In this document: positions 321-12,030 of the stretch, one piece after another
How positions within the stretch are numbered: position 1 is the stretch's first letter
How the letters are laid out: every line of letters begins with the position of its first letter
Origin: an uncultured archaeon
Lineage (GTDB): Archaea; Iainarchaeota; Iainarchaeia; Iainarchaeales; CSSED10-239
Length of the DNA stretch: 12,492 nucleotides
NCBI GenBank assembly: GCA_964463155.1
Contig: CAYXAY010000020.1
Span: 1-12,492, forward strand
Direction: 5' to 3'
Notes under the pieces: generated by a model
Databases searched by the model: none
Told to the model about the DNA's origin: nothing
The model's input: only the letters and a program-made list of their open reading frames with translations
Position numbers and translations under genes: made by a program

Positions 321-656
321 TTACTGCACTCCTTCTAAATCATCTAGGTTTTCTTGCTTGTCTTTGCTATCTTGCTTTGTTGCAGAATTGATTTTTTTAA
401 AAATAAGGTCTTCTTGCTTTTGTATGTTTTTTATCCTTAAGTCGATTGTATCTTTTAGGTCCTTTGTATCTTTTATGACATCTTCTTTGTCAGAAAGAAT
501 AAAGATATTTCCAACACCTTTGTAAACCTTCTTTTCCTTTGTCTTTTCTAACTCTTTAACTGTGTTATCAAGAACATTTATCTGAAATTGTAATTGTTGT
601 TTTTGCTGTGTTAAAAACAATAATCGCTGTCTATATACATTTGCATTTTCGCTCAT
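321..656 (-). CDS. pfdB: Prefoldin beta subunit
   Basis: 111-aa coiled-coil protein (..QQKQQLQFQINVLDNTVKELEKT..VYKGVGNIFI..). Last position of the exosome superoperon. Its start overlaps the upstream stop by ATGA. Confidence 0.8.
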   Translation of the reverse strand: MSENANVYRQRLLFLTQQKQQLQFQINVLDNTVKELEKTKEKKVYKGVGNIFILSDKEDVIKDTKDLKDTIDLRIKNIQKQEDLIFKKINSATKQDSKDKQENLDDLEGVQ

Positions 657-904
657 AAATCCACCTCATAAGTTTTTTTAATCAATTCTAAAAGATTAAT
701 GTAATTGTTTATTGTTGCTTTGTAGGCTGTTATGTCCTTACAATCTATGTTTATCTTTATTGCCTTTGGCTTTGCTAAAACCGTTATTTTTGAAGACGAT
801 CTTTTAAAGTCCTTTCTATTCATCTCAAGCTCTAAAAGCTCCTTTAGCTTTTTAGGGTTGCTAGTCTTTATTATCAATTCCTCTGAAATTATAGAACCAA
901 TCAT
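653..904 (-). CDS. pcc1: KEOPS subunit Pcc1-like small protein
   Basis: 83 aa. The C-terminal ITAYKATINNYINLLELI resembles the Pcc1 helix (..aLRAalNsylrwl..). It sits in the conserved slot between Brix and prefoldin beta, with ATGA overlaps on both sides. Confidence 0.6.
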   Translation of the reverse strand: MIGSIISEELIIKTSNPKKLKELLELEMNRKDFKRSSSKITVLAKPKAIKINIDCKDITAYKATINNYINLLELIKKTYEVDL

Positions 905-1335
905 AAACTTTCCTCTTTTATTTTAAAAGAAAAGAAAAGCTCCTTGTTTATTTCAAAGCTTATTGTGTTGTTCTCTTGCTTTGCCTTTGTTTCTGAATCT
1001 TTGTCAATTTCTTCAAGGAAATAAAATAATTTCCCTTTGGCATTGATGGTTGTTATCTTTTTCTTTGGTTTTTTGTAAAGGACATCTGTTATTGTGAATA
1101 ACTTCTCTGGGAAATATTCCTTATCTTTTCTTTTGTAGATTAATAATTTTATATTGTCTTTCTTTTTTCCCACAAGCAAAAGATGATTGTAGCCAATATA
1201 GTTTGATTTTTCAAAGATTTTTTTAAGTGTGGTTTCTCCTCTAGGTATGTGCCTTACTTCTGGAAGAAACTTAGCTAAATGCTTGCAAAATCTTTTTTGA
1301 AAAATCTTGGCGTTTCTTGAAGTCGTAATTATCAT
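901..1335 (-). CDS. Brix-domain (Imp4-like) ribosome biogenesis protein
   Basis: The N-terminus MIITTSRNAKIFQKRFCKHLAKFLP..IPRGETTLKKI matches the archaeal Brix signature (llTTSRkPs.r.r.f.keL....RGk.sl). Superoperon position supports the call. Confidence 0.75.
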   Translation of the reverse strand: MIITTSRNAKIFQKRFCKHLAKFLPEVRHIPRGETTLKKIFEKSNYIGYNHLLLVGKKKDNIKLLIYKRKDKEYFPEKLFTITDVLYKKPKKKITTINAKGKLFYFLEEIDKDSETKAKQENNTISFEINKELFFSFKIKEESL

Positions 1336-1464
1336 CTAGTCAGCCTTTACCTTCTTTACAACAGGCATTCTTTTCTTGTAAAATATTCTTCCTGAACAGC
1401 TTTTACATTTCTTGCTTTCTGGCATAGAATTGTAAACTTCATTACATTTTCCACAATAGTACAT
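1336..1464 (-). CDS. rpoP: DNA-directed RNA polymerase subunit P (Rpo12/RPC10), 42 aa; absent from the supplied ORF track
   Basis: Hand translation: MYYCGKCNEVYNSMPESKKCKSCSGRIFYKKRMPVVKKVKAD, a CxxC...CxxC zinc ribbon. AGGTGA SD overlaps the rpl37ae stop. The stop TAG at 1336-1338 abuts the Brix ATG. Expected superoperon slot between L37Ae and Brix. Confidence 0.75.
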   Translation of the reverse strand: MYYCGKCNEVYNSMPESKKCKSCSGRIFYKKRMPVVKKVKAD

Positions 1465-1472
1465 GATTTCAC

Positions 1473-1697
1473 CTATTGACCTGCTGTTTTGTATTTGTAA
1501 GCACCACCTGAAACCTTTGTCTTACATTTTTTGCATTGAAAGATTCCTGTTGCCACTCTTTTTATCTTGTCTTTTGTTCCACATTTTGGACAAACTTTTT
1601 TGCTTTTGTCCTCAATTGCTAGAAGGTATTTCTTTCTAATACCTACTCCCCCTCTTACTCCGTACTTTCCTGTCTTTTTAACTTTTTTTGTGTTCAT
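1473..1697 (-). CDS. rpl37ae: Ribosomal protein L37Ae (eL43)
   Basis: ..TGKYGVRGGVGIRKK..CPKCG..KRVATGIFQCKKCKTKVSGGAY. Typical eL43 zinc-ribbon sequence. Confidence 0.9.
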   Translation of the reverse strand: MNTKKVKKTGKYGVRGGVGIRKKYLLAIEDKSKKVCPKCGTKDKIKRVATGIFQCKKCKTKVSGGAYKYKTAGQ

Positions 1698-2503
1698 TTT
1701 TCTTCACATATTTTTGTTTTTATTTCTGAATATTTCTTTGTTGCGACATCCATTATCTGGTTGATGTCAGAAATCTTGAAGGTTCCGTTTCCTCCGCCTT
1801 TGTGATAAGCAACAACGGCGTTACCCACAACTCCTAGAGTAAACCTAGAGTCACTTGCTAAATCTTCAACCTCTGTTGCGTCAGCAAATAACTTGTTTTT
1901 TGATTTCCAGAAGGTAAAAGATACTGCTATCTTTTTTAGGTCGATATTGAGTTTCTTGTTTGTGTATTCTTTTAAAACTATGCTATTGTTCTCGTCAAGC
2001 TTTGGAATCTTACAATCAAGTAAAGCTGCCATTGCTGCGTATTGTCCAGCATCTATCAAATTACCGTCTGCATTTAAGGCATAACAATCAACATAGACAA
2101 TAAATGATTTTTCTCCAGTAACTATGTTTAAGTCTTTAAAATCAATACATTTTGAAGACCTTATTACTCTGTCAACAATTCTTCCATATTCCATAGCAGG
2201 AATACTTGGTGGTCCGGTGTCTATGTCTGCTGAGGCTATTCCTGACATCTCAAGATTAATCACTATTGAACCTTCGTTGGGAGAATCTGGATAAGGGGTT
2301 CCTACTACAAACTTTACGCCCGCAATAATTTCAGTATTGCCAAGCTTTGCCCATGCTGAGCCGTCTGCCGATGTCATTACTCCTCTTTTGATTTCAAGAG
2401 ACCTGTATTCTAATAAATCCCTATTGTCAAATCTTTTGTTTTCAAAAATTAATTTTCTTGCATTGTCTGATTTTAGTATCTTTAGAATATCTGTGTCACT
2501 CAT
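1694..2503 (-). CDS. rrp42: Exosome complex subunit Rrp42 (RNase PH-like, non-catalytic)
   Basis: RFDNRDLLEYRSLEIKRGVMTSADGSAWAKLGNTEIIAGVKFVVGTPYPDSPNEG is an RNase PH fold signature. ATGA overlaps with rrp41 and rpl37ae. Confidence 0.85.
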   Translation of the reverse strand: MSDTDILKILKSDNARKLIFENKRFDNRDLLEYRSLEIKRGVMTSADGSAWAKLGNTEIIAGVKFVVGTPYPDSPNEGSIVINLEMSGIASADIDTGPPSIPAMEYGRIVDRVIRSSKCIDFKDLNIVTGEKSFIVYVDCYALNADGNLIDAGQYAAMAALLDCKIPKLDENNSIVLKEYTNKKLNIDLKKIAVSFTFWKSKNKLFADATEVEDLASDSRFTLGVVGNAVVAYHKGGGNGTFKISDINQIMDVATKKYSEIKTKICEEK

Positions 2504-3207
2504 TGTATGTCACCTTCCATTGGATATTTTTCAACAAGCGCTTTTTTTTGAATCTCATATATTTTTTCTGCGCCTTTTAGAGCAGTTTCTAGGATTTTTG
2601 AACAATCTTTTTTGTCAACAAAACCATCCATTTGAAGAAGTGCAAGTTCTTGTTGTGGCATCAAAAAAGCACAAGCCATGTCAACAGCATCCTCTGTGTC
2701 CTCGTCTTCTTTGTCAAGATCAAGAACAAGCGCCCCATTTGCTCTTCCTGCTGCTACTGCGCTTATTAGTCCTTTCATTGGAAGACCCGCCTCAGCTACA
2801 GCTAAGCTTGCTGCTGTTAATGCTGCAACTCTCGTTCCTGCATCTGCTGAAAATATTAAAACATTAACATCTATCATTGTATTTGGGAATTGATCAACCA
2901 TTACTGCTGCTTCTAGAGCGTGACCTGAAACCAAGGAAATTTCTTTATCTCTTTTTCCAGGAACTGGTGATTTTCTTTCAGAAACAGAAAAGCTTGCCAT
3001 TCTGTATTTGTAGTCTATTATTGCTTTTGTAGGGTCTGCTAAATGTTTAGGGAAAACTGGTCTTGGACCGTTTACTGTTGCAACAACTATATTTTTGCCC
3101 CACTCTAAATAACAGGAACCATCTGCATTCTTTGCAATCCCAAGCTCAATCTTTATGGGACGCAACTCATCTAAAGACCTTCCATCTAGTCTTTTTGCAT
3201 TACTCAT
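2500..3207 (-). CDS. rrp41: Exosome complex exonuclease Rrp41 (RNase PH-like, catalytic)
   Basis: RLDGRSLDELRPIKIELGIAKNADGSCYLEWGKNIVVATVNGPR is the canonical Rrp41 N-terminus. GGAGAG SD upstream. Confidence 0.9.
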   Translation of the reverse strand: MSNAKRLDGRSLDELRPIKIELGIAKNADGSCYLEWGKNIVVATVNGPRPVFPKHLADPTKAIIDYKYRMASFSVSERKSPVPGKRDKEISLVSGHALEAAVMVDQFPNTMIDVNVLIFSADAGTRVAALTAASLAVAEAGLPMKGLISAVAAGRANGALVLDLDKEDEDTEDAVDMACAFLMPQQELALLQMDGFVDKKDCSKILETALKGAEKIYEIQKKALVEKYPMEGDIQ

Positions 3208-3221
3208 TTTTATCTCTCCTC

Positions 3222-3830
3222 TTATTGATTATTTTTTAAGTATTCTTCTATTGTGTTTGTAAGATTTGCTTTTTGCGAATTTCTAATTATCATTGAAATT
3301 GCATTTTCTAAAAGACCAGCGTTCTTTGAAACATACCAAATCCAGCCGTTTCTTCCAATTAAGATATTTGATTGAGTGTATTTCTTTAAGATGTTTAGCA
3401 TCGAATCGTTTTTTCCAATTATCCTTGGAATCTTTACTGAAGAAACCGAATAGATTAATCCGTCTGGAAGAATGTTAATGTTATCAAGCTCAGAAACATC
3501 GGCTCCATCTACTCCTTTTACTCTTGCAAAAAGAATCTGTCCAATCTTTAGTTCTTTTGTTATCAAAGACTTTGGAAAGAAACAATCGCTATGGGAATTT
3601 ACATCAATGATATAGCCATTTGCTGTGACATTTCTTACCACACAAACTATTGGATCGTTTTCTTGTGGGATATATGGCCCATTTAATGGAACTATAGAAA
3701 CAAAATCGTCTGTTTCATTTAATATGCCAAGAACTGAGCTGTGTATTTTTTCTTCAGTGATAAAAATATTTTCCCCAACTTTTTTTTTCTTATCTGTGAT
3801 TAACTCTCCAGGAACTACTATTCTTTTCAT
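3222..3830 (-). CDS. rrp4: Exosome RNA-binding subunit Rrp4 (N-terminal, S1 and KH domains)
   Basis: VVPGELI N-terminal motif, an S1-like segment NDPIVCVVRNVTANGYIIDV, and a KH-like segment ILIGRNGWIWY. Superoperon position supports the call. Confidence 0.85.
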   Translation of the reverse strand: MKRIVVPGELITDKKKKVGENIFITEEKIHSSVLGILNETDDFVSIVPLNGPYIPQENDPIVCVVRNVTANGYIIDVNSHSDCFFPKSLITKELKIGQILFARVKGVDGADVSELDNINILPDGLIYSVSSVKIPRIIGKNDSMLNILKKYTQSNILIGRNGWIWYVSKNAGLLENAISMIIRNSQKANLTNTIEEYLKNNQ

Positions 3831-3846
3831 TTATTTTCACTCTTTT

Positions 3847-4542
3847 TTATTTTAAAACATTGACTATTACTGACCCGTGCGTGATGTTGTTTAAATCAGT
3901 TAACAGTTTTGATTTTAGACCTATAGGCAAAGTCACCCTTGCAAACAATCCTCCGCTTGGTAGCCATTTTTCCTCAAGAATCTCATACTTGTGAAGAACA
4001 GGCATTAATTTTCCAGAGTATTGAGCAGTAACCTCAACTGACATAACAATCTTTTCCATAGAGATTGGCATTGCCTTTTTTAGAACAAGCATAACTTCGT
4101 TTAACTCGTCGTCTTTTTTTCTGGAAAGACTAAACTTAAATTTTGCGGATTCTAAAGCATTGAGAATTCTTTGTGGTGGTATTGGTGTCATATCTTTTGG
4201 GTCATGTGCATTTTTTGTTATAAAGTATATAATCTCGCTTTCTCTTCTTTTAAGCATCTCGTTTCTTTGTGATGTTGTTAATTGAACATCGCCGTCATGT
4301 ATTATTTTTTTTGCAATTGTCAAAAAATCAGTTGTCTGGAAAACTTCCTTTATCACTTCTTCTGAAGCCAGTTTTCCTTTTGCTGAATCTGAATAAACTT
4401 CTTCCATTGCAAACATCTCGTCAAAGTTTATTTCTGTTTTTCCGTGCTTGTAGTCCCAAGCCTTGTAAGGATCAACAAATATCTCAAAGCGGTGCCCATT
4501 TCTACTAAGTCTTGCAATTACTGCATCATCTAATTTTACCAT
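3847..4542 (-). CDS. sdo1: SBDS/Sdo1 family ribosome maturation protein
   Basis: MVKLDDAVIARLSRNGHRFEIFVDPYKAWDYKHG is the typical archaeal SBDS N-terminus. GGGGTGAT SD upstream. Confidence 0.85.
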   Translation of the reverse strand: MVKLDDAVIARLSRNGHRFEIFVDPYKAWDYKHGKTEINFDEMFAMEEVYSDSAKGKLASEEVIKEVFQTTDFLTIAKKIIHDGDVQLTTSQRNEMLKRRESEIIYFITKNAHDPKDMTPIPPQRILNALESAKFKFSLSRKKDDELNEVMLVLKKAMPISMEKIVMSVEVTAQYSGKLMPVLHKYEILEEKWLPSGGLFARVTLPIGLKSKLLTDLNNITHGSVIVNVLK

Positions 4543-4554
4543 TATTAATCACCC

Positions 4555-5280
4555 CTATAATAACTTTGAATATTTTTCTAAAGGAACTATAGCATCTTGA
4601 TCTCCGTTCTCTGCAATATTTATTACTTGTATGCTTTGAGGGTTTAGTTTTTGTTTTGGCTCAAGGTTTAAGGATATTGCTTTTATTGCAATTGTTAATG
4701 CTTCTTCAAAGCTTAGGTTTTCCTTGAAATTTTTCTCTAGATAGCCTATTATTTTTTGTTTGTTTTGGCCTATTGCTAATGCCTTGTAGGCGGTTATTGC
4801 TCCGCTTGGTTCTGCTTCAAATATATGCTTTCCTAAAGAATCGTAGCCCGCAATTATCAATGAAACACCAAATGGTCTTCCTCCGCCATATTGTGTGAAA
4901 TATTGCATTATTGATGCTATTTTTCTTACTAATGCTTCCACTTCAATTGGTTGATCGTAGTAGGTTCTGTTCTCTTGAGACATTTGTCTTGCAAAATCAA
5001 CTAGTCTTCTTCCGTCCCCTATTAGTCCTGCACAGGTTGTCCAGACATGGTTGTCTATCTTAAATACCTTTTCTACTGATTCTGGTAGAACCAAAGAAGA
5101 ATGGATTTTCTTGTCTGCCACTATTATTATGCCTTGCTTGTAGATTATTGCCACTGCTGGGCTTCCTTTTTCAATGATTTTGGAGGCATAGTCCACTTGA
5201 TAGAGATGTCCTTCTGGACTAAACATTGTTGTTGAACGATCATAGCCGGCAGCTGCTGCGCCAATAGCATTTGGAATCAA
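4555..5280 (-). CDS. psmA: Proteasome alpha subunit (TTG start)
   Basis: YDRSTTMFSPEGHLYQVDYA is the hallmark alpha-subunit motif and requires a start upstream of it. The only in-frame start is TTG at 5280-5278, preceded by GGTGA 6 nt upstream. Confidence 0.9.
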   Translation of the reverse strand: MIPNAIGAAAAGYDRSTTMFSPEGHLYQVDYASKIIEKGSPAVAIIYKQGIIIVADKKIHSSLVLPESVEKVFKIDNHVWTTCAGLIGDGRRLVDFARQMSQENRTYYDQPIEVEALVRKIASIMQYFTQYGGGRPFGVSLIIAGYDSLGKHIFEAEPSGAITAYKALAIGQNKQKIIGYLEKNFKENLSFEEALTIAIKAISLNLEPKQKLNPQSIQVINIAENGDQDAIVPLEKYSKLL

Positions 5281-5302
5281 ATTTATTCACCATTTTTAGA
5301 AT

Positions 5303-5325
5303 TTTTTAATATAAATATAAATGTG
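5303..5325 (-). promoter_or_regulatory. Candidate TATA/BRE region for the psmA-to-pfdB operon
   Basis: The minus strand reads TTTATATTTATATTAAAAAA about 25-40 nt upstream of the psmA SD and TTG. An AT-rich background makes this weak evidence. Confidence 0.3.
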
Positions 5326-5391
5326 TAAAACATAGTTATCTACTAAGAAATATTATGGATAAGAAGTATTTAAAAAGCTTAAGTTATTAAC

Positions 5392-5399
5392 AAAAAAAA
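5392..5399 (-). terminator. Oligo-T (T8) tract downstream of the membrane-protein gene
   Basis: A8 on the plus strand equals T8 on the minus strand, 18 nt after the stop at 5418-5420. Archaeal termination typically occurs at oligo-T tracts. Confidence 0.35.
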
Positions 5400-5417
5400 G
5401 AGAAATTGGCCGCTTTA

Positions 5418-5918
5418 TTAAAAAGCAGCTTTGGCTTCCTTGGAAAATATCAAGTAGCCTGCGATAAATCCGTAGATTACAATTCCTGCGATATTTGATA
5501 GGTCTCCAGTGAATAATAGACCTATAATTGCTCCAAAAAATGCAAGGCATGCAAGTATCATTATTACATATCTTGCCCAGTTTTTTAGCTTAAACAAACT
5601 TAAACCAAGATAAAATATGAAAGCACCCCATATTATTGCAAGAATTCCAATTATCAAAAAGAATGTTGGAGTATAGAATGCAAAAACTTGCGGACCTACT
5701 GTTGCTGTTGATTTCAATAAGTAATCATTTGCTTTCTTTGGAAAGATTATTATCAATACGCCAAACAGAAAGGCTAAGATTGAAACAATTATATAATATG
5801 TTGAAATTATCTTTATGCCTAGTGGTTTTGTGTGCTTTGTTTCTACTTTCTTTTCTACTGGTTTACTCGCGACTTTCTTTGCTAGCGCTTCTTCCGTAAT
5901 TTTCTTTTTTACTGCCAT
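5418..5918 (-). CDS. Small integral membrane protein: Lys-rich N-terminal tail plus about 4 TM helices, function unknown
   Basis: Four long hydrophobic stretches by eye: IISTYYIIVSILAFLFGVLIIIF, FFLIIGILAIIWGAFIFYLGL, YVIMILACLAFFGAIIGLLF and IAGIVIYGFIAGYLIF. AGGTGA SD lies inside the 3' end of the Pop5 gene. Confidence 0.6.
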   Translation of the reverse strand: MAVKKKITEEALAKKVASKPVEKKVETKHTKPLGIKIISTYYIIVSILAFLFGVLIIIFPKKANDYLLKSTATVGPQVFAFYTPTFFLIIGILAIIWGAFIFYLGLSLFKLKNWARYVIMILACLAFFGAIIGLLFTGDLSNIAGIVIYGFIAGYLIFSKEAKAAF

Positions 5919-5921
5919 TTT

Positions 5922-6251
5922 TTATTTCACCTTTTTTATTGTGCTTTTTATGTCTTTTACTTTTAGCAACCCTAGATCGGATTGAGCAAAAAACAAAGAC
6001 GCAATAAATGTATCTAAATATTCTTTGTTAATTCTTATTAATAACGTTTTGGTTTTTTGTTCAGTGTCAATAATTGTGATGTTTGTTTCAATTTGAGAAA
6101 ATATCCCACTTTGTTTTTGTAAGGCCTTGTAAAGTATTGTTTGCACTATCTTGGAATCTATTGGCTGGTTATAGGTAAGCAATTGCAATTGCAAATATCT
6201 TTTTTTGTGCCTTAAAGTCGGCTTTATTACTGCTAGTCTTTTCTTTTTCAT
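5922..6251 (-). CDS. rnp2: RNase P protein component 2 (Pop5 homologue)
   Basis: IKPTLRHKKRYLQLQL matches the Pop5 N-terminal signature (lPptlRekkRYl). About 110 aa. Follows Rpp30 with an ATGA overlap. Confidence 0.75.
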   Translation of the reverse strand: MKKKRLAVIKPTLRHKKRYLQLQLLTYNQPIDSKIVQTILYKALQKQSGIFSQIETNITIIDTEQKTKTLLIRINKEYLDTFIASLFFAQSDLGLLKVKDIKSTIKKVK

Positions 6252-6841
6252 ATATTTTCTGTTAATGTTCTTTTGATAAGTGGTTTTTCTAAATTAAAAT
6301 TTTTTAAAAACTCCTGAATAATAACAGGGTCAAGTAATTCATCTGCAGTTTTTGCATAGCTGATAAACTTAAACTCTATTTTGTGTTTTTCAAGTATTGG
6401 GATACTGAACTGCATCTGTTTGATTGATTTGTTCTGGTTGTTTCTTATCTGGTTTATGTTGAAGAAAAATAGTTTGTTGTTTTGCTTTGCTATTCTTGCT
6501 AATCCCTCGTCAATGCTGGTTTCCTGGACTATTGGGTCGAATAAATGGATAGGGATTTTGGTTGAGAGTATATTAGATATTGCTAGGATGTCCTTACCTT
6601 GTCCAAGAATTACTGTGTTTTTCGAAATAATTGATTTGCAGGTGTTTAAGAGATTGAGGTCTGTAAACAAAAGCGCTTTTCTAAATTGTTTTCCAGACGG
6701 CAAAGGATAATCTACATCTTCTTTTGTTTTTACTTCTTTAATCACATAAATTGTATAAATACCTAATTGTTCTAAATTCTTTGAAATATTCGGATATTTG
6801 AATAACTCACTTGAAACAAAATCAATATATTTTTCTTTCAT
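6248..6841 (-). CDS. rnp3: RNase P protein component 3 (Rpp30 homologue), divergent
   Basis: The size, the pattern YIDF..LGIYTIYV..VILGQG..IHLFDP..IAKQNNKLFFFNINQI..KFISYAKTADELLDP (compare Rpp30 yDl..lGy..v.gg..vDil.p..la..n.vafEi.l..itSgA.s..elr.P), and its position just upstream of Pop5. Confidence 0.6.
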   Translation of the reverse strand: MKEKYIDFVSSELFKYPNISKNLEQLGIYTIYVIKEVKTKEDVDYPLPSGKQFRKALLFTDLNLLNTCKSIISKNTVILGQGKDILAISNILSTKIPIHLFDPIVQETSIDEGLARIAKQNNKLFFFNINQIRNNQNKSIKQMQFSIPILEKHKIEFKFISYAKTADELLDPVIIQEFLKNFNLEKPLIKRTLTENI

Positions 6842-8542
6842 TTACATTTTCTCCGGAATTTCTATTCCTAAAAGCCATGTTGCATTTTCTAGTGTTTGCA
6901 AATAACTTATTATTAATGCAAGCCTTTGTTCTGTAAGTTCTTTGTCATCAGAGATAACTTGACAATTTCCATAGAACTTATTGAATGTGTGGGACAAGTC
7001 AAGACAGAAGCTAACAACGGCGTTTGGTTTTCTTTCTCTTGTCGCATATTCTGCCTTTGCTGGAAACTGCATAATCAAACTTAATAATTTCTTTTCATCA
7101 TTTTCTAGTTTTTTTGGACTAGGCACTTTTGTAAATTCTTTGAAATTTGCTTTTCGTAGAATGCTTTTTGCCCTAACTCCGCTGTATTGGACATATACTG
7201 AAGAGTCTCCTTGAAGATCAAGAGCTGAATTTATATCAAACACAAATGTCTTGTTAAAACCAATCTTTAACATCTCAAACTTTATTGTTCCAAAAACAAT
7301 TTTGTCAATTATGTCTTTGTCGTGCGCTAGGTTGTTTTCTGTTAGCACATCCTTTACTTTTTCCCTTAATATATCCCTTAAGTCTTCGTAAAGAACCATG
7401 CCACCTGCGCGCGAAGCCATTTTTCCACTAGAAAGATTGACCATCCCAAGAGACAAGTGTTCGTGAGTTGTGCTAGGATATACTTTTGAAAATAAATAAA
7501 ATAGTTGTCTAAAATAAAAATCCTGTTCAGAACCAACAACATAAATAAAATGATTGCATTTTGGAAACTTTTCTTTTTTTATTTGAACAAGAGCTATGTC
7601 TTTTGCGCCGTAAAGTGGTGCGCCATTCTTTTTTATTAATACCAAAACATCAAGCTTTTTGTCCTTCAAGTCAGCAATAACTGCATCATCGCTTTCTTGG
7701 ATTCTGTCTTTGTGTTCTTTAATAAAAGAATCTTTAATATCTAAAAATCTCTTTTCGGTTTCACTTTCAAATATTTTGTCGATAAGCTCTATTCCCAGTT
7801 CGTCTTTGACCTGCATGTATGCCATATAGCAGACATCTCTAAGCCTAGCTATTTCTTTTTGTAATTTTGGGTCAATTAAAATCTGTTTTTGTAAATTGTC
7901 TATTTCTTTTGTGGAGTTTTCATTAACTTTTGCCTTTTCTCCTGCAGCAATGTAAATTTCTCCAAACCATTTGGCGACATTAATTTTTGGAATATTTTGT
8001 TTTTCTTTTGGAAGTTGAAGATAATACCAGTACCACTTGGCAACATGCGTTCCTACATCTCCGCCATAATAAACCGGCCGTGGGTCGTATCCACAAAAAG
8101 AAAGAAGGCGATTTATTGAATCCCCACCAACAACCATTCTTAAATGTCCTACATGAAGCGTCTTGAAGGTATTGGCGTTAAATGTATCAATAACATATTG
8201 TTCTTTTTTACCAATATCTGATTTCCCATATTCTTTTTTTTTGTTTAAAACTTCAGAAATTGTTTCTTTGTAAAGTATATTGTTGTTAATTTTTACATTT
8301 ATGTAACCGGCAACGGAAACAAAATCAAAGATATTTTGCTTTTCTTTTTTTAGTTTTTCAACCAAGTCTTTGGAAATGTCTTGAGGTGATTTCTTCAGAT
8401 TCGTTGCTAAGGAAAAACAAGGAAAGGATAAATCTCCAAGTTCAAAATCTGGCGGCTCTTCTATTGTTTTAATAATTTCAGAAATGTCTTTATCAATAAC
8501 CTTTGAAAGGTCATTTGCAAATTTTTCTTTAAAGTTTATCAT
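6842..8542 (-). CDS. argS: Arginyl-tRNA synthetase
   Basis: Class I HIGH motif (TLHVGHLR), the ArgRS-type KMSKS substitute (GKMASRAGG), and an anticodon-binding C-terminus. I prefer the ATG at 8542 (AGGT SD 8 nt upstream) over the ORF-track TTG at 8548. The stop abuts the rnp3 ATG. Confidence 0.9.
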   Translation of the reverse strand: MINFKEKFANDLSKVIDKDISEIIKTIEEPPDFELGDLSFPCFSLATNLKKSPQDISKDLVEKLKKEKQNIFDFVSVAGYINVKINNNILYKETISEVLNKKKEYGKSDIGKKEQYVIDTFNANTFKTLHVGHLRMVVGGDSINRLLSFCGYDPRPVYYGGDVGTHVAKWYWYYLQLPKEKQNIPKINVAKWFGEIYIAAGEKAKVNENSTKEIDNLQKQILIDPKLQKEIARLRDVCYMAYMQVKDELGIELIDKIFESETEKRFLDIKDSFIKEHKDRIQESDDAVIADLKDKKLDVLVLIKKNGAPLYGAKDIALVQIKKEKFPKCNHFIYVVGSEQDFYFRQLFYLFSKVYPSTTHEHLSLGMVNLSSGKMASRAGGMVLYEDLRDILREKVKDVLTENNLAHDKDIIDKIVFGTIKFEMLKIGFNKTFVFDINSALDLQGDSSVYVQYSGVRAKSILRKANFKEFTKVPSPKKLENDEKKLLSLIMQFPAKAEYATRERKPNAVVSFCLDLSHTFNKFYGNCQVISDDKELTEQRLALIISYLQTLENATWLLGIEIPEKM

Positions 8543-8560
8543 AATCAATTACCTTTAAGG

Positions 8561-8633
8561 CGAGCCCGGAGGGATTCGAACCCTCGACCCACAGCTTAGA
8601 AGGCTGTTGCCCTATCCACTAGGCCACGGGCCC
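8561..8633 (-). tRNA. tRNA-Arg (anticodon UCU), 73 nt, no intron, CCA not encoded
   Basis: Folded by hand. Acceptor GGGCCCG/CGGGCTC (one G-U pair). D stem GCCT/GGGC with loop AGTGGATA. Anticodon stem ACAGC/GCTGT with loop CTTCTAA. Variable region GGGTC. T arm GAGGG-TTCGAAT-CCCTC. Discriminator G. Confidence 0.9.
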
Positions 8634-8687
8634 ACAAGATATATAATTTAGAAAAGAAAATAAATAAAAAGAGAATAGAAAAAGCAC
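8634..8687 (-). promoter_or_regulatory. Intergenic region with oligo-T terminators for the DsbA-like gene and a candidate TATA element for the tRNA-Arg/argS unit
   Basis: The minus strand reads TAAGTGCTTTTTCTATTCTCTTTTTATTTATTTTCTTTTCTAAATTATATATCTTGTG immediately 5' of the tRNA. It holds T5 runs and TTTATTTATTTT / TTATATAT boxes. The exact elements are not resolvable by eye. Confidence 0.3.
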
Positions 8688-10067
8688 TTATTGTGCTATT
8701 TGATTTGTATCTTGGGGATATAATCTGTTGTATTGTTCCTCAAGATAAGCTATCGCTGTTAGGTGTTTGGAATAAACGCTATTGAATATGTTCGTATACA
8801 CATCGTTATTCTCTTTTTTTAATTCAAATAATGCTTGATGCATTTCTAGATATTTGCCTTGTTTTTCTACACATCTAGATACCAGTAATGGTTTAATCGC
8901 TGTTTGTTGATGTGATGGGACTGCAATGAAATCTTTTATGATTATTGCAACATCATCTGTCTCTAGGATTCTTTTTTGAGTTTCCGTCTCAAACTTTGCA
9001 CAGAAAGAACATTCAAAGTCAGTAAACACATACATCTTTACTGGAGAGCTGGTGTTACCCATTACAAAATCTCTGTTGTCTGCTAATAAGCTTGTATCAA
9101 GTATTTGTATTATGTCTGTTGGAATTATCTGAACTGCTTCTGACATTATTTCTTCATTAAACTGATAACCATTAGCATTTGTTTTTGCGAAGAGTCGATT
9201 AAATATTTGGCTATTGTTTTCATCTGTCAGTAATACAGATTCATCAACTTTTCCTTCTATGTAAAAGACAGGTATTTGTTTTGCGTCTATTGCCTCTAAT
9301 ATTTCTTTTCCTTTTGTGGAATCGTAGCTATATCTTTCTGTAGGCAAATCGAACATGTATTCAAAAAAGTTTGCAAGTTGTGGGTTTAGAGTTGTTTCAT
9401 TTTGTAAACTTGTAATTAATGTGTCTGTTCCGTCTTTTATATGTTGATGGTTTTCATTGTCTATAATTATTAGTTTTGCTGGAATTGTGGTGTTTGATTT
9501 GTATGTCTTATTTGTGTAATCTAATGAAAAGTTTGTTTTTGCATCATCTTTTGCTAAATTTATGTATTGTTTAAACACATTATAATCCTTAGCTCCTGAA
9601 ATCTTGTAGCTGCCAACAATTATCGCTGGCGTTCCTGTAATTTTTAGGTTTTGTGCTAACTCGCGGTCTGCCTGTATTTTTGAAATTATTTCATGGGCCG
9701 GATTTTCCATAATTTCTGCAATACAGGAATCAATTTGTGTTTTGTTTACGCCTATGTCCAAATATATTGGTTCAAACAATGCATTGTACCCTTCATCTAC
9801 TTCTGATTGCACTATTTCCCCTAATTCCTTTACTTTTATTTGGAATTCGTCCTCTGTTAAGTTAGTGTCTAATGTGGTTATTGAAATGTTATGGTCGTTT
9901 GTTTTTGTGGTTTTGTTTTTTGTAAGCATTACTGTTGCAAACACTGCCCCAATAATCAAGATAATTAGGATAATTATCCCTATTAGCCAAAAATTAATTT
10001 TTTGTTTTGGTATATGATTCACAACCTGGTCTTTGTGAACGATTTTGTGCGTTTTTTGTTTTTTCAA
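8688..10067 (-). CDS. Membrane-anchored extracytoplasmic thiol:disulfide oxidoreductase, DsbA/thioredoxin-like, multi-module (TTG start)
   Basis: N-terminal TM anchor FWLIGIIILIILIIGAVFATVML. CxxC active site FTDFECSFCAKF (C353/C356, nt 9000-9011). DsbA-type cis-Pro segment KITGTPAIIVGSYKISG (aa 142-157). TTG start at 10067 preceded by AGGTGAT. Confidence 0.7.
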   Translation of the reverse strand: MKKQKTHKIVHKDQVVNHIPKQKINFWLIGIIILIILIIGAVFATVMLTKNKTTKTNDHNISITTLDTNLTEDEFQIKVKELGEIVQSEVDEGYNALFEPIYLDIGVNKTQIDSCIAEIMENPAHEIISKIQADRELAQNLKITGTPAIIVGSYKISGAKDYNVFKQYINLAKDDAKTNFSLDYTNKTYKSNTTIPAKLIIIDNENHQHIKDGTDTLITSLQNETTLNPQLANFFEYMFDLPTERYSYDSTKGKEILEAIDAKQIPVFYIEGKVDESVLLTDENNSQIFNRLFAKTNANGYQFNEEIMSEAVQIIPTDIIQILDTSLLADNRDFVMGNTSSPVKMYVFTDFECSFCAKFETETQKRILETDDVAIIIKDFIAVPSHQQTAIKPLLVSRCVEKQGKYLEMHQALFELKKENNDVYTNIFNSVYSKHLTAIAYLEEQYNRLYPQDTNQIAQ

Positions 10068-10144: not shown

Positions 10145-11155
10145 ATGGTTTTTATGGCAAAAAAATTAATTGATAAAAAGATATCTGATGATTTAAGGCA
10201 TAAGCATTATGCACTTATTGGAGAGCACTCTGCTGTTGAAATTTGTGAATGGAACAAGAAGGCTCTTAGAGGAGAAGGTGTTTGTTACAAACAGCAATTC
10301 TATAACATTGAGTGCCATAGATGCGCACAAATTACTCCTGCCGTTGTTTGGTGCCATAACAATTGTATTTTCTGTTGGAGACCTGCAGAATACATGACTA
10401 TGGATAAGTTTACTAAAGAATATTATGATGATTCTAAAAAAATAATTGATGAATTATTTGAACAAAGAAAGAAATTGCTTTCTGGTTTTGGGGGCTTTCC
10501 AAAGGTATCTAAGGCACTTTTAAAAGAAGCTGAGATTCCAAGTCATGTTGCTATTTCTCTTTCCGGAGAGCCAACGCTTTATAAGGATCTTTGGAGACTT
10601 ATTAAAGAACTTAAATCTAGAAAAGAAATCAAAAGCATCTTTGTTGTTACAAACGGTCTTGAGCCAACAACACTTGAAAGTCTTTCAAAACACAAAAGTC
10701 TTCCAACACAACTTTATCTTTCTTTTGTTGCTCCAAATAAAGAGCTTCATTTAAAGATTAATAAGCCAAAGATAAAATACTCTTGGGAAAGATTAATGAA
10801 AACTGTTTCCTTGTTCCCAAAATTAAAAACTAGAAAAGTTATAAGATTTACATTAATCAAAGGAATAAATGACAATAAAAAATACATTAAAAACTTTGTA
10901 AAAATCTTTGAAAAGACAAAGGCGGATTTTGTTGAGATTAAGGCCTATATGTTTTTGGGGTATTCTAGAAAGACTTTAAAGATAGAAAACATGCCCAGCT
11001 TTGATGATTGTTTGAAGTATGCTAAAGCTTTTGAGAAACTTTCAAAAAACTACAAGATATCAGACACTTGTAAGCCCTCAAGAATCATTCTTCTAAAAAA
11101 CAAGAAATCAAAAGTGGATAATTTTATAATTAAAAGAAAAAGAAAAAAGAAATGA
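10145..11155 (+). CDS. taw1: tRNA 4-demethylwyosine synthase Taw1/TYW1 (radical SAM)
   Basis: HSAVEICEWNKKALRGEGVCYKQQFYNIECHRCAQITPAVVWCHNNCIFCWRP matches the archaeal Taw1 signature: three auxiliary-cluster Cys plus the CxxxCxxC radical-SAM motif followed by WR. An alternative start at ATG 10154 is possible. Confidence 0.85.
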   Translation: MVFMAKKLIDKKISDDLRHKHYALIGEHSAVEICEWNKKALRGEGVCYKQQFYNIECHRCAQITPAVVWCHNNCIFCWRPAEYMTMDKFTKEYYDDSKKIIDELFEQRKKLLSGFGGFPKVSKALLKEAEIPSHVAISLSGEPTLYKDLWRLIKELKSRKEIKSIFVVTNGLEPTTLESLSKHKSLPTQLYLSFVAPNKELHLKINKPKIKYSWERLMKTVSLFPKLKTRKVIRFTLIKGINDNKKYIKNFVKIFEKTKADFVEIKAYMFLGYSRKTLKIENMPSFDDCLKYAKAFEKLSKNYKISDTCKPSRIILLKNKKSKVDNFIIKRKRKKK

Positions 11156-12030
11156 CAGAAATAAATGAATACCAAAAAGCAATAGTTGAAGCTTTGCAAA
11201 AAGAAAAGACCATTTGTCTTCTGGCTCCTAGCTTTCCAGTAGATTTTTCTTTCCCGGATATTGTTCTGGATCTTAGAAGACTTGGCTTTACAATGGTTGT
11301 TGAGCTGACTTATGCTGCAAAGCTTATCAATTACAAATATATTAGCACAATTAATGATAACCCAGAAAAACAATTTATTTGCGCAAACTGCCCAACAATT
11401 GTAAAACTTATAGAAAATCAATATCAAGAGCATAAAGACAAGATACTTGATGTGGCTTCTCCAATGATCGTCATGGCTAAATTTGTAAAAAGAGAATTTG
11501 GAGAAGATTATAAAACAATTTTTATAGGACCTTGCCTTGCTAAAAAACAAGAGGCTAAGGAGAATTCTGAAGTTATTGATTTTGCATTAACATTTAAAGA
11601 GCTTGTAGACATTTATGACTACTTAGAGGAAAACAAATTGCTTAAGGAGATAGATAATAACCCTGAAAACAAGCAATTCGACAAATTCTATAATGATGTG
11701 ACAAAGATTTATCCTCTTGGTGGAGGAGTTACAAGTAATTTGATAACGAAAGATATTCTTAATCTTGATGAAGTCATTGTTTGCGATGGCCCTCATTGTA
11801 TTGAAAAAGCAATGTTTGATTTTACAAACAACAAGAGACATAGATTTTTAGATATCCTTTTCTGCGAGGGCGGTTGTCTTGGCGGTCCAGGAATTATTTC
11901 AAAGGAAGATTTAGAACCCAAAAAACAAAGGATATTTGATTATAAAGATAAATCGAGATATTATCAACCAGATAAAAACTATGGTAAGTTCGTTCACGCT
12001 TTCGGTCTTGATATTAAAAGAAAAAAGTGA
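11152..12030 (+). CDS. Stand-alone [FeFe]-hydrogenase large-subunit H-domain homologue, 292 aa (minimal HydA-like or Nar1-like FeS protein)
   Basis: Four motifs occur in the order found in H-domains. LAPSFPV compares with APavR. FICANCP (C77, C80) compares with L1 TSCCP. IGPCLAKKQEA (C128) compares with L2 MPCxxKKxE. ILFCEGGCLGGPG (C238, C242) compares with L3 ExMxCxxGCxxGGGQ. There is no N-terminal ferredoxin-like domain. The start overlaps the taw1 stop (ATGA). Confidence 0.65.
   Translation: MTEINEYQKAIVEALQKEKTICLLAPSFPVDFSFPDIVLDLRRLGFTMVVELTYAAKLINYKYISTINDNPEKQFICANCPTIVKLIENQYQEHKDKILDVASPMIVMAKFVKREFGEDYKTIFIGPCLAKKQEAKENSEVIDFALTFKELVDIYDYLEENKLLKEIDNNPENKQFDKFYNDVTKIYPLGGGVTSNLITKDILNLDEVIVCDGPHCIEKAMFDFTNNKRHRFLDILFCEGGCLGGPGIISKEDLEPKKQRIFDYKDKSRYYQPDKNYGKFVHAFGLDIKRKK

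Follow-up and report, generated by a model that had tools for sequence, protein, structure and literature searches.

What does it mean when the gene of a transfer RNA (tRNA) stands immediately before the gene of the very enzyme that charges it? The question is raised by a stretch of archaeal DNA (contig CAYXAY010000020.1; 12.5 kb, ∼32% G+C; hereafter the window, that is, the whole stretch analysed), in which a minus-strand tRNA-Arg gene with the anticodon UCU is followed by argS, the gene of arginyl-tRNA synthetase (ArgRS), and this in turn by the genes of two protein subunits of RNase P. The ArgRS homologues place the window in an uncultured clade of DPANN archaea, and one cluster of them is labelled Candidatus Iainarchaeum sp. 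A first-pass annotation had suggested that a single transcript might carry the tRNA, its synthetase and proteins of the enzyme that matures the tRNA. The answer developed below, which rests on the sequence and on its relatives, is that the locus is probably a tRNA-led mixed operon, in which tRNase Z would free the tRNA and in doing so make the 5′ end of the argS mRNA.

The first point to settle is whether the small gene is what it seems. The tRNA (8561 to 8633, minus strand; 73 nt, intronless) scores 69.2 bits with the Rfam tRNA family (RF00005), for which the gathering score is 29, and its cloverleaf is canonical and full-length, with the anticodon UCU in a loop of 7 nt. ARAGORN reports tRNA-Arg with the anticodon TCT at 8559 to 8633, taking in two C past the discriminator base G8561. 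The bases after this G are CCT, so the terminal CCA is not encoded in the window. For recognition by ArgRS, the arginine identity elements are A20 and C35, and both can be read directly: the D-loop AGUGGAUA supplies A20, and the anticodon U34 C35 U36 supplies C35, the numbering being our own. The anticodon also suits the genes around it. Among 16 open reading frames (ORFs) of the window, a count from which the 42-amino-acid (aa) rpoP ORF was left out, AGA makes up 80 of the 107 arginine codons (75%), and AGA with AGG 91%; the earlier impression, formed by eye, that AGA is the favoured arginine codon is thus confirmed.

Could the “tRNA” nevertheless be a mere tRNA-like processing or stability element of the mRNA, rather than the tRNA-Arg(UCU) with which the cell works? 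Elements that resemble tRNAs do serve archaea as processing signals (PMC8406309). However, a full-length canonical cloverleaf of 69 bits, an anticodon that fits the dominant arginine codon, and the presence of A20 and C35 all speak against this idea, as does the near-invariance of the sequence across the clade, where nine distinct orthologous sequences show compensatory stem changes at 4:69 and 51:63. We regard it as very improbable.

Two further details of this tRNA deserve a mention (numbers preceded by L denote the argS loci compared below). The acceptor stem contains a G2·U71 wobble (window 8632/8563) that is kept across the clade, with A2-U71 in L093 and L096; as A2-U71 replaces the wobble there, it is U71 that is fixed. 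The 3′ CCA is encoded in four relatives (L102, L107, L108, L146) and not in the others, including the window, which reads GCCT.

As for the gene that follows, argS (6842 to 8542, minus strand) encodes an arginine–tRNA ligase of 566 aa: the protein scores 347.5 bits with TIGR00456, whose cut-off is 261.65, and its N-terminal, catalytic and DALR domains (PF03485, PF00750 and PF05746) are all above their cut-offs. The program that listed the ORFs put the start at an in-frame TTG at 8548; we place it at the ATG at 8542, because the close homologues all have M-[IF]-N-F-K-E as their N-terminus, counted from the corresponding ATG. Between discriminator and ATG lies an 18-nt spacer, CCTTAAAGGTAATTGATT (8543 to 8560), in which the longest T-run is 2. 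It contains a Shine–Dalgarno (SD)-like AGGT at 8554-8551, that is, at −12 to −9 from the argS ATG and 6-10 nt from the discriminator, a position that matches the GGTGA/AGGTG SDs of other genes in the window (−14 to −9).

The junctions downstream are just as tight. The argS TAA (6844-6842) abuts the ATG of rpp30 at 6841, with 0 nt between them; rpp30 and pop5, which the first-pass annotation called rnp3 and rnp2, overlap by the 4 nt of ATGA (6251-6248); and a membrane protein gene starts 3 nt after pop5, with its GGTGA SD inside the pop5 3′ end. The coordinates given earlier were all correct on rechecking: Rfam, ARAGORN and direct reading agree on a tRNA-Arg(UCU) lying 18 nt 5′ of its cognate argS, and the abutting stop and start, the ATGA overlap and the SD within pop5 are likewise as first described.

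Are these genes, then, read as one unit? A minus-strand scan for hairpins followed by T-runs found sites at only two gene borders; a sigma-70 promoter scan is inapplicable to an archaeon, and only the hairpin and T-run output was used. The first site, AGCACAATAAGTGCT (8683 to 8697), covers the stop codon of the upstream dsbA-like gene and is followed by a T-rich stretch (T5 at 8683-8679); its motif is partly conserved in close relatives. The second, past the membrane gene, consists of a hairpin at 5429-5409 followed by T8 at 5399-5392. Both are terminator-like and may mark the upstream and downstream borders of the unit. One other site, at 8096-8078 within argS, is taken to be due to chance. 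Between the tRNA and argS, where a terminator would have spoken against a shared transcript, the scan found no site.

The promoter signals point in the same direction. A TATA-like element, TTTTTATTTA (8661 to 8670, minus strand), lies at −37 to −28 from the mature 5′ end of the tRNA and is predicted to serve the tRNA-led unit as its promoter. A TATA-like 8-mer (TTTWWAWA, with at least 7 of 8 matches) starting at −32 to −37 from the tRNA is present in ∼20 of the 25 distinct sequences that precede the tRNA in the clade. From the position of this box, the predicted 5′ leader is only a few nt long. For argS alone, on the contrary, the sequence leaves no place for a TFB-recognition element (BRE) and TATA box at −23 to −38 from any usable start: a separate TATA, ∼23-30 nt 5′ of a start site that could itself lie no further downstream than the SD or ATG, would fall in the GC-rich strand of the tRNA T-arm and acceptor stem. 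The earlier description of a spacer that holds the argS SD and has no room for a promoter is therefore borne out by the AGGT at −12, the length of 18 nt and the GC-rich 3′ half of the tRNA.

From this geometry we infer the following course of events. A promoter ∼30 nt 5′ of tRNA-Arg(UCU) would drive one primary transcript, beginning just 5′ of G8633, carrying a short leader, the tRNA, the 18-nt spacer, argS, rpp30, pop5 and the membrane gene, and ending at the hairpin and T8 at 5429-5392. RNase P would trim the short 5′ leader, and tRNase Z would cut past the discriminator G8561, whereupon the tRNA would receive its CCA and the argS mRNA would be left with the spacer and its SD as its 5′ end. 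ArgRS, Rpp30, Pop5 and the membrane protein would all be expressed from the promoter of the major arginine isoacceptor, and one promoter would be saved in a very compact genome. Enzymes able to act in this manner are described: in Haloferax, archaeal RNase P and tRNase Z excise in vivo RNAs that are flanked by tRNA-like elements (PMC8406309).

Another question is whether the arrangement extends beyond this one contig. To answer it, 160 argS loci were scanned for tRNAs, half of them (80) taken from species-representative genomes and the other 80 from metagenomes. The clade of the window's ArgRS comprises 35 of them (45-83% identical), four of which end within or just upstream of argS; in all of the 31 that can be assessed, argS is immediately preceded by a co-oriented tRNA-Arg(UCU). 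The adjacency, whose lack of conservation would have told against the first-pass proposal, is thus constant in these relatives. The breadth of the clade rests mainly on metagenome contigs, with at least two clade genomes among the matches listed. Outside it the picture is the opposite: in the ∼125 listed loci with an ArgRS no more than 40% identical (other DPANN phyla, bacteria of the candidate phyla radiation, and others), the pair occurs in none, and there is no independent recurrence, the nearest case being a bacterial tRNA-Arg(TCG) 1.8 kb upstream, in L075. Nor does argS ever stand beside rpp30, pop5, sbds or rrp4 in these ∼125 listed loci. The pair would have arisen once, in an ancestor of the DPANN clade that was probably Iainarchaeota-like, and would have been placed at the head of a pre-existing exosome/proteasome superoperon, which is discussed below.

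A locus of the Micrarchaeota (L025, 1168-4377) offers a side view of these genes. There, argS is followed on the same strand by a proteasome subunit gene and by tyw1, with no tRNA. Three gene families of the window are close together in a different order, which may be a coincidence.

Is such conservation a sign of function? Several observations counsel caution, and they weigh against the tRNA-led operon. The whole neighbourhood, ∼10 kb in the order tyw1-dsbA-tRNA-argS-rpp30-pop5-(TM)-psmA-sbds-rrp4-rrp41, where TM stands for the membrane gene, is syntenic across the clade, so that the conservation of the tRNA-argS pair counts as one evolutionary event and is weak evidence of selection. Of 25 distinct sequences, 14 have 14-20 nt from discriminator to ATG, three have 26-30 nt and seven have 43-57 nt (including the near-identical spacers of L097 and L098), while one has 68 nt and one 81 nt. 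Moreover, a T5-T7 run begins 1-8 nt past the tRNA in L094, L097, L098, L102, L105, L106 and L109, with argS within 26-68 nt of the tRNA; in L105 and L109, 30 nt separate the tRNA from the ATG. Such a run could be a leaky terminator that sets the tRNA:mRNA ratio, or the TATA box of a leaderless argS, and in the relatives with long spacers or T-runs termination, complete or partial, and a separate argS promoter are possible. Since several relatives have spacers of 43-81 nt, T5-T7 runs, or both, co-transcription is not obligatory throughout the clade.

The controls, drawn from other DPANN-like loci, add to this caution. Only 4 of 24 control tRNAs have T5 or longer within 30 nt, so the lack of a T-run after the tRNA is a weak argument for read-through. 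A co-oriented ATG-started ORF of at least 100 aa lies within 40 nt of 5 of ∼18 control tRNAs, these ORFs being mechanical calls rather than verified genes; tight tRNA-to-ORF spacing therefore seems common, and the cognate pairing could be an accident. Finally, promoter calls are unreliable in DNA of 68% A+T. Of the claim that one transcript spans the locus, what stands is that it accounts most economically for the geometry; what does not stand is its extension, as an obligation, to the relatives with long spacers or T-runs. For the window and the other short-spacer lineages, co-transcription of the tRNA, argS and the downstream genes is probable.

Taken further, these doubts amount to a different explanation: the arrangement would be a neutral relic of synteny, with tRNA and argS mere neighbours in a region that rearranges slowly; argS would be expressed independently, either through a low level of read-through or from a promoter of an unconventional or overlapping kind, and the pairing with its own tRNA would be coincidental. 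It would suit the fact that the entire tyw1-to-rrp41 neighbourhood is conserved and not the tRNA-argS junction alone, as well as the single origin of the pair, absent from the listed loci outside the clade, and the long spacers of L094, L097/98, L103/104 and L106, which contain T-runs and TATA-like stretches. The odds are also worth a thought. By a rough estimate of our own, which assumes ∼45 tRNAs and ∼1000 genes and was not computed, some tRNA should lie directly 5′ of its own synthetase gene, co-oriented, with a chance of ∼2% per independent gene order, a figure that is not negligible over many genomes. As the arrangement of a single genome the pair is thus not compelling; it is, at the same time, conserved over a deep clade. 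The cognate pairing may be selected or accidental, and any benefit of it is hypothetical.

What makes a neutral relic unlikely is, first, that a BRE and TATA have no room either in the window or in 13 other distinct short-spacer sequences, the 3′ strand of the tRNA being GC-rich; argS is essential, so that its transcription must come from upstream. A second argument comes from the accidents that the neighbourhood has suffered. The dsbA gene is absent in L107, L108 and L146. In L100, a two-gene insertion (5783-7115) splits argS from rpp30; the first of its genes is a 184-aa ORF, probably that of an antitoxin, and the second encodes the corresponding AbiEii nucleotidyltransferase toxin (PF08843, 89 bits). 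In L106, an IS630-like element on the opposite strand (5769-6822; a DDE_3 transposase and an ORF with a helix-turn-helix) comes right after argS in place of the rpp30-pop5 continuation, and synteny ends there. Each of the neighbouring junctions is disrupted at least once; of four adjacent junctions, that of the tRNA and argS alone never is.

If the tRNA-led operon holds, does the tRNA also govern the expression of argS? One can imagine a cis-regulatory device, in which the binding of ArgRS to the precursor tRNA, or the removal of the tRNA by tRNase Z, controls how ribosomes reach the SD; ArgRS and, indirectly, the RNase P proteins would then be autoregulated by the balance of tRNA-Arg and ArgRS. 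The enzyme and its substrate are certainly tied in function, as ArgRS requires tRNA for the activation of arginine, and the SD is only 6 nt from the discriminator at its nearest. There is also a candidate structure. The palindrome CTTTAAAG occurs after the tRNA (8543-8560) and again at argS codons 3-5 (AAC TTT AAA G; 8528-8536), and CTTTAAAG(G) after the tRNA, able to pair with these codons, is conserved in most short-spacer members. The possible stem would have 8 bp, AU-rich, enclosing the SD and the AUG, with equivalents in L001, L002, L081, L083, L110 and L115.

Yet the points on the other side are numerous. The hairpin is worth −2 to −7 kcal/mol, mostly no better than shuffled sequences; no covariation is seen, and tRNA is the only Rfam family matched; the spacers of the clade differ freely in both length and sequence; and the choice of the AAC codon is not unusual, with AAT/AAC at 105/98. 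Such a device is very unlikely. The hairpin itself, a 5′-terminal structure of the palindrome CUUUAAAG with codons 3-5 that would enclose the SD, was rejected as evidence: its z-scores against dinucleotide shuffles are mostly −1.4 to +0.7, and that of the window, whose spacer is without one T of the palindrome, is +0.4. It is the one candidate hairpin of the spacer, and it is not significant; nothing was found to indicate that expression is coupled to ArgRS binding or to processing of the tRNA. The most ambitious form of the idea makes the tRNA and argS a minimal autoregulatory module, in which ArgRS binding or slow tRNase Z cleavage would gate the translation of ArgRS and the RNase P proteins. 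We hold it to be highly improbable; were it true, the amount of synthetase made would follow the availability of its major substrate tRNA, and the module would be an archaeal counterpart, in function, of T-box or thrS-operator control, made from a real tRNA.

Related to these questions is the role of the two RNase P genes, and here the first task was to identify them. The 197-aa product of the ORF at 6248 to 6841 (minus strand) has no match to PF01876 even at E ≤ 10, nor any other Pfam or NCBIfam match, and a profile of 20 sequences built on it found no Rpp30 among the sequences of the Protein Data Bank (PDB). Its 16 database homologues are all devoid of Pfam domains; three are labelled hypothetical and the rest are unnamed. 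The predicted structure tells more. The fold of Rpp30 is a TIM-barrel-like alpha/beta one, and an AlphaFold2 model of the 197-aa protein, made with 17 homologues (predicted local distance difference test, pLDDT, 85.8; predicted template-modelling score, pTM, 0.83), finds archaeal Rpp30 at ranks 1-7 of a Foldseek search of the PDB, with TM-scores of 0.72-0.78 over the full length and E-values of 2e-8 to 2e-5. These matches include 3wyz and 3wz0_E (T. kodakarensis), 1v77 and 2czv (P. horikoshii PH1877) and 6k0a_C and 6k0b_C (archaeal RNase P holoenzyme, cryo-electron microscopy); the entries that come next are transaldolases, with TM-scores below 0.5. In the clade loci, the gene always adjoins pop5.

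On the strength of predicted fold and synteny, the protein is accepted as a highly divergent Rpp30, and the rnp3 label of the first-pass annotation is upheld where sequence profiles are silent. One consequence is practical: neither Pfam nor NCBIfam recognises the Rpp30 of the clade, so that surveys of gene content would wrongly count the subunit as absent. Its neighbour pop5 (5922 to 6251, minus strand; 109 aa) is recognised by PF01900 (31 bits against a gathering score of 23) and weakly by NF002986. The membrane protein that follows (5418 to 5918, minus strand; 166 aa), the last gene of the proposed unit, matches no family above threshold, and its gene is variably present in relatives.

Why do RNase P genes follow argS at all? 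The archaeal exosome/proteasome superoperon begins with POP5 and RPP30 side by side (PMC4919917, PMC2695463), and from rpp30 on (6841..321) the window has the same gene order as this superoperon (PMC2695463, PMC4919917): rpp30-pop5-psmA-sbds-rrp4-rrp41-rrp42-L37ae-rpoP-brix-...-prefoldin beta, co-oriented and closely spaced. Of these, rpoP (19 bits) and brix (38.7 bits, NCBIfam) are below their cut-offs and were assigned partly by position. The two differences from the known superoperon are the head of tRNA-Arg and argS, specific to the clade of the window, and an Rpp30 that has diverged past detection by sequence profiles.

The RNase P genes are thus downstream of argS because of superoperon ancestry, and the link between the tRNA and the RNase P subunits, which had been read as scope for a meaningful coupling, loses its force: ancestry explains it, and it is broken in L100 and L106. 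Since the argS-rpp30 junction is broken in these two loci while the tRNA-argS junction is intact, members of the clade can do without the link to the RNase P genes. Besides, the cut made by RNase P is 5′ of the tRNA, and the enzyme would therefore have no role in parting tRNA from mRNA, which is a tRNase Z step. Feedback of RNase P on the argS mRNA is consequently not an obvious outcome of the architecture, and the RNase P coupling appears incidental.

The rest of the window can be described briefly. Read 5′ to 3′, the minus strand carries a gene for a DsbA/thioredoxin-like membrane protein (10067..8688), then the tRNA, argS, rpp30, pop5 and the membrane gene, and after these psmA, sbds, rrp4, rrp41, rrp42, L37ae, a 42-aa rpoP-like ORF, a Brix-like ORF, pcc1 and prefoldin beta. 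Past the downstream terminator-like hairpin comes a TATA-like CTTTTTAAATA and then the psmA SD. The 42-aa ORF (1336-1464, minus strand; MYYCGKCNEVYNSMPESKKCKSCSGRIFYKKRMPVVKKVKAD) is a zinc ribbon with a GGTGA SD and a weak RPAB4/RpoP match of 19 bits; it fills what would seem 137 nt of empty sequence separating L37ae from the Brix-like gene, and the string from psmA to prefoldin is therefore continuous. Both psmA (5280, minus strand) and the dsbA-like gene (10067, minus strand) apparently begin with TTG, 6-7 nt after a GGTGA SD; an ATG at 5293, upstream near the psmA start, is out of frame.

The plus strand, divergent from the dsbA-like gene, holds tyw1 and a gene related to iron hydrogenases. 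The radical-SAM gene tyw1, of wyosine synthesis, overlaps a 292-aa ORF by 4 nt (10145-12030, plus strand), which suggests translational coupling. The 292-aa protein has the C-terminal domain of the large subunit of Fe-only hydrogenases (PF02906, 130 bits), an unexpected partner for tyw1.

What would a tRNA-led argS operon mean, if the co-transcription is real? In a deep DPANN lineage, the mRNA of a housekeeping synthetase would be born by the 3′ processing of its own substrate tRNA. The locus would be a convenient system in which to study mRNA 5′ ends made by tRNase Z and promoter economy in reduced archaeal genomes, and possibly the control of synthetase/tRNA stoichiometry.

How does all this compare with what is already known? 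A full-text literature search returned no described linkage of tRNA-Arg and argS, nor a relevant general linkage of genes for tRNAs and their cognate synthetases. The closest analogue is the pylT-pylS(BCD) cluster of Methanosarcinales, where the tRNA gene comes first, directly 5′ of its own synthetase and co-oriented (PMC2933860). That cluster, however, behaves as a transferable cassette: its tRNA and synthetase are orthogonal and serve a non-canonical amino acid, whose biosynthesis genes it also contains. The window, unlike it, joins a canonical major isoacceptor to a housekeeping ArgRS, and the two head a superoperon of RNA processing and the proteasome.

A second parallel comes from bacteria. 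In E. coli, metY-rimP-nusA-infB and thrU-tyrU-glyT-thrT-tufB are tRNA-led transcripts that encode tRNA-binding proteins of translation, and in such operons the endonucleolytic processing of the tRNA parts it from the mRNA. They differ from the window in that the nucleases are others and the partner is a translation factor, not the cognate synthetase.

T-box riboswitches and the thrS operator of E. coli share with the window a synthetase transcript whose 5′ region is related to the cognate tRNA. There, it is a sensor or a mimic; here, in an archaeon, it is a complete, functional-looking tRNA gene, and no T-box was matched by Rfam in the window, tRNA being the only Rfam family there.

The nearest parallel in processing is that of the Haloferax t-elements, from which RNase P and tRNase Z release flanking RNAs by the same step that is proposed for the window; the t-elements are not functional tRNAs, whereas the tRNA of the window is itself a product (PMC8406309). 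Against this background, the tRNA-argS unit is classified as a probable tRNA-led mixed operon with a cognate pair, clade-specific and grafted on the exosome superoperon; as matters stand, known principles and one ancestral rearrangement can explain it.

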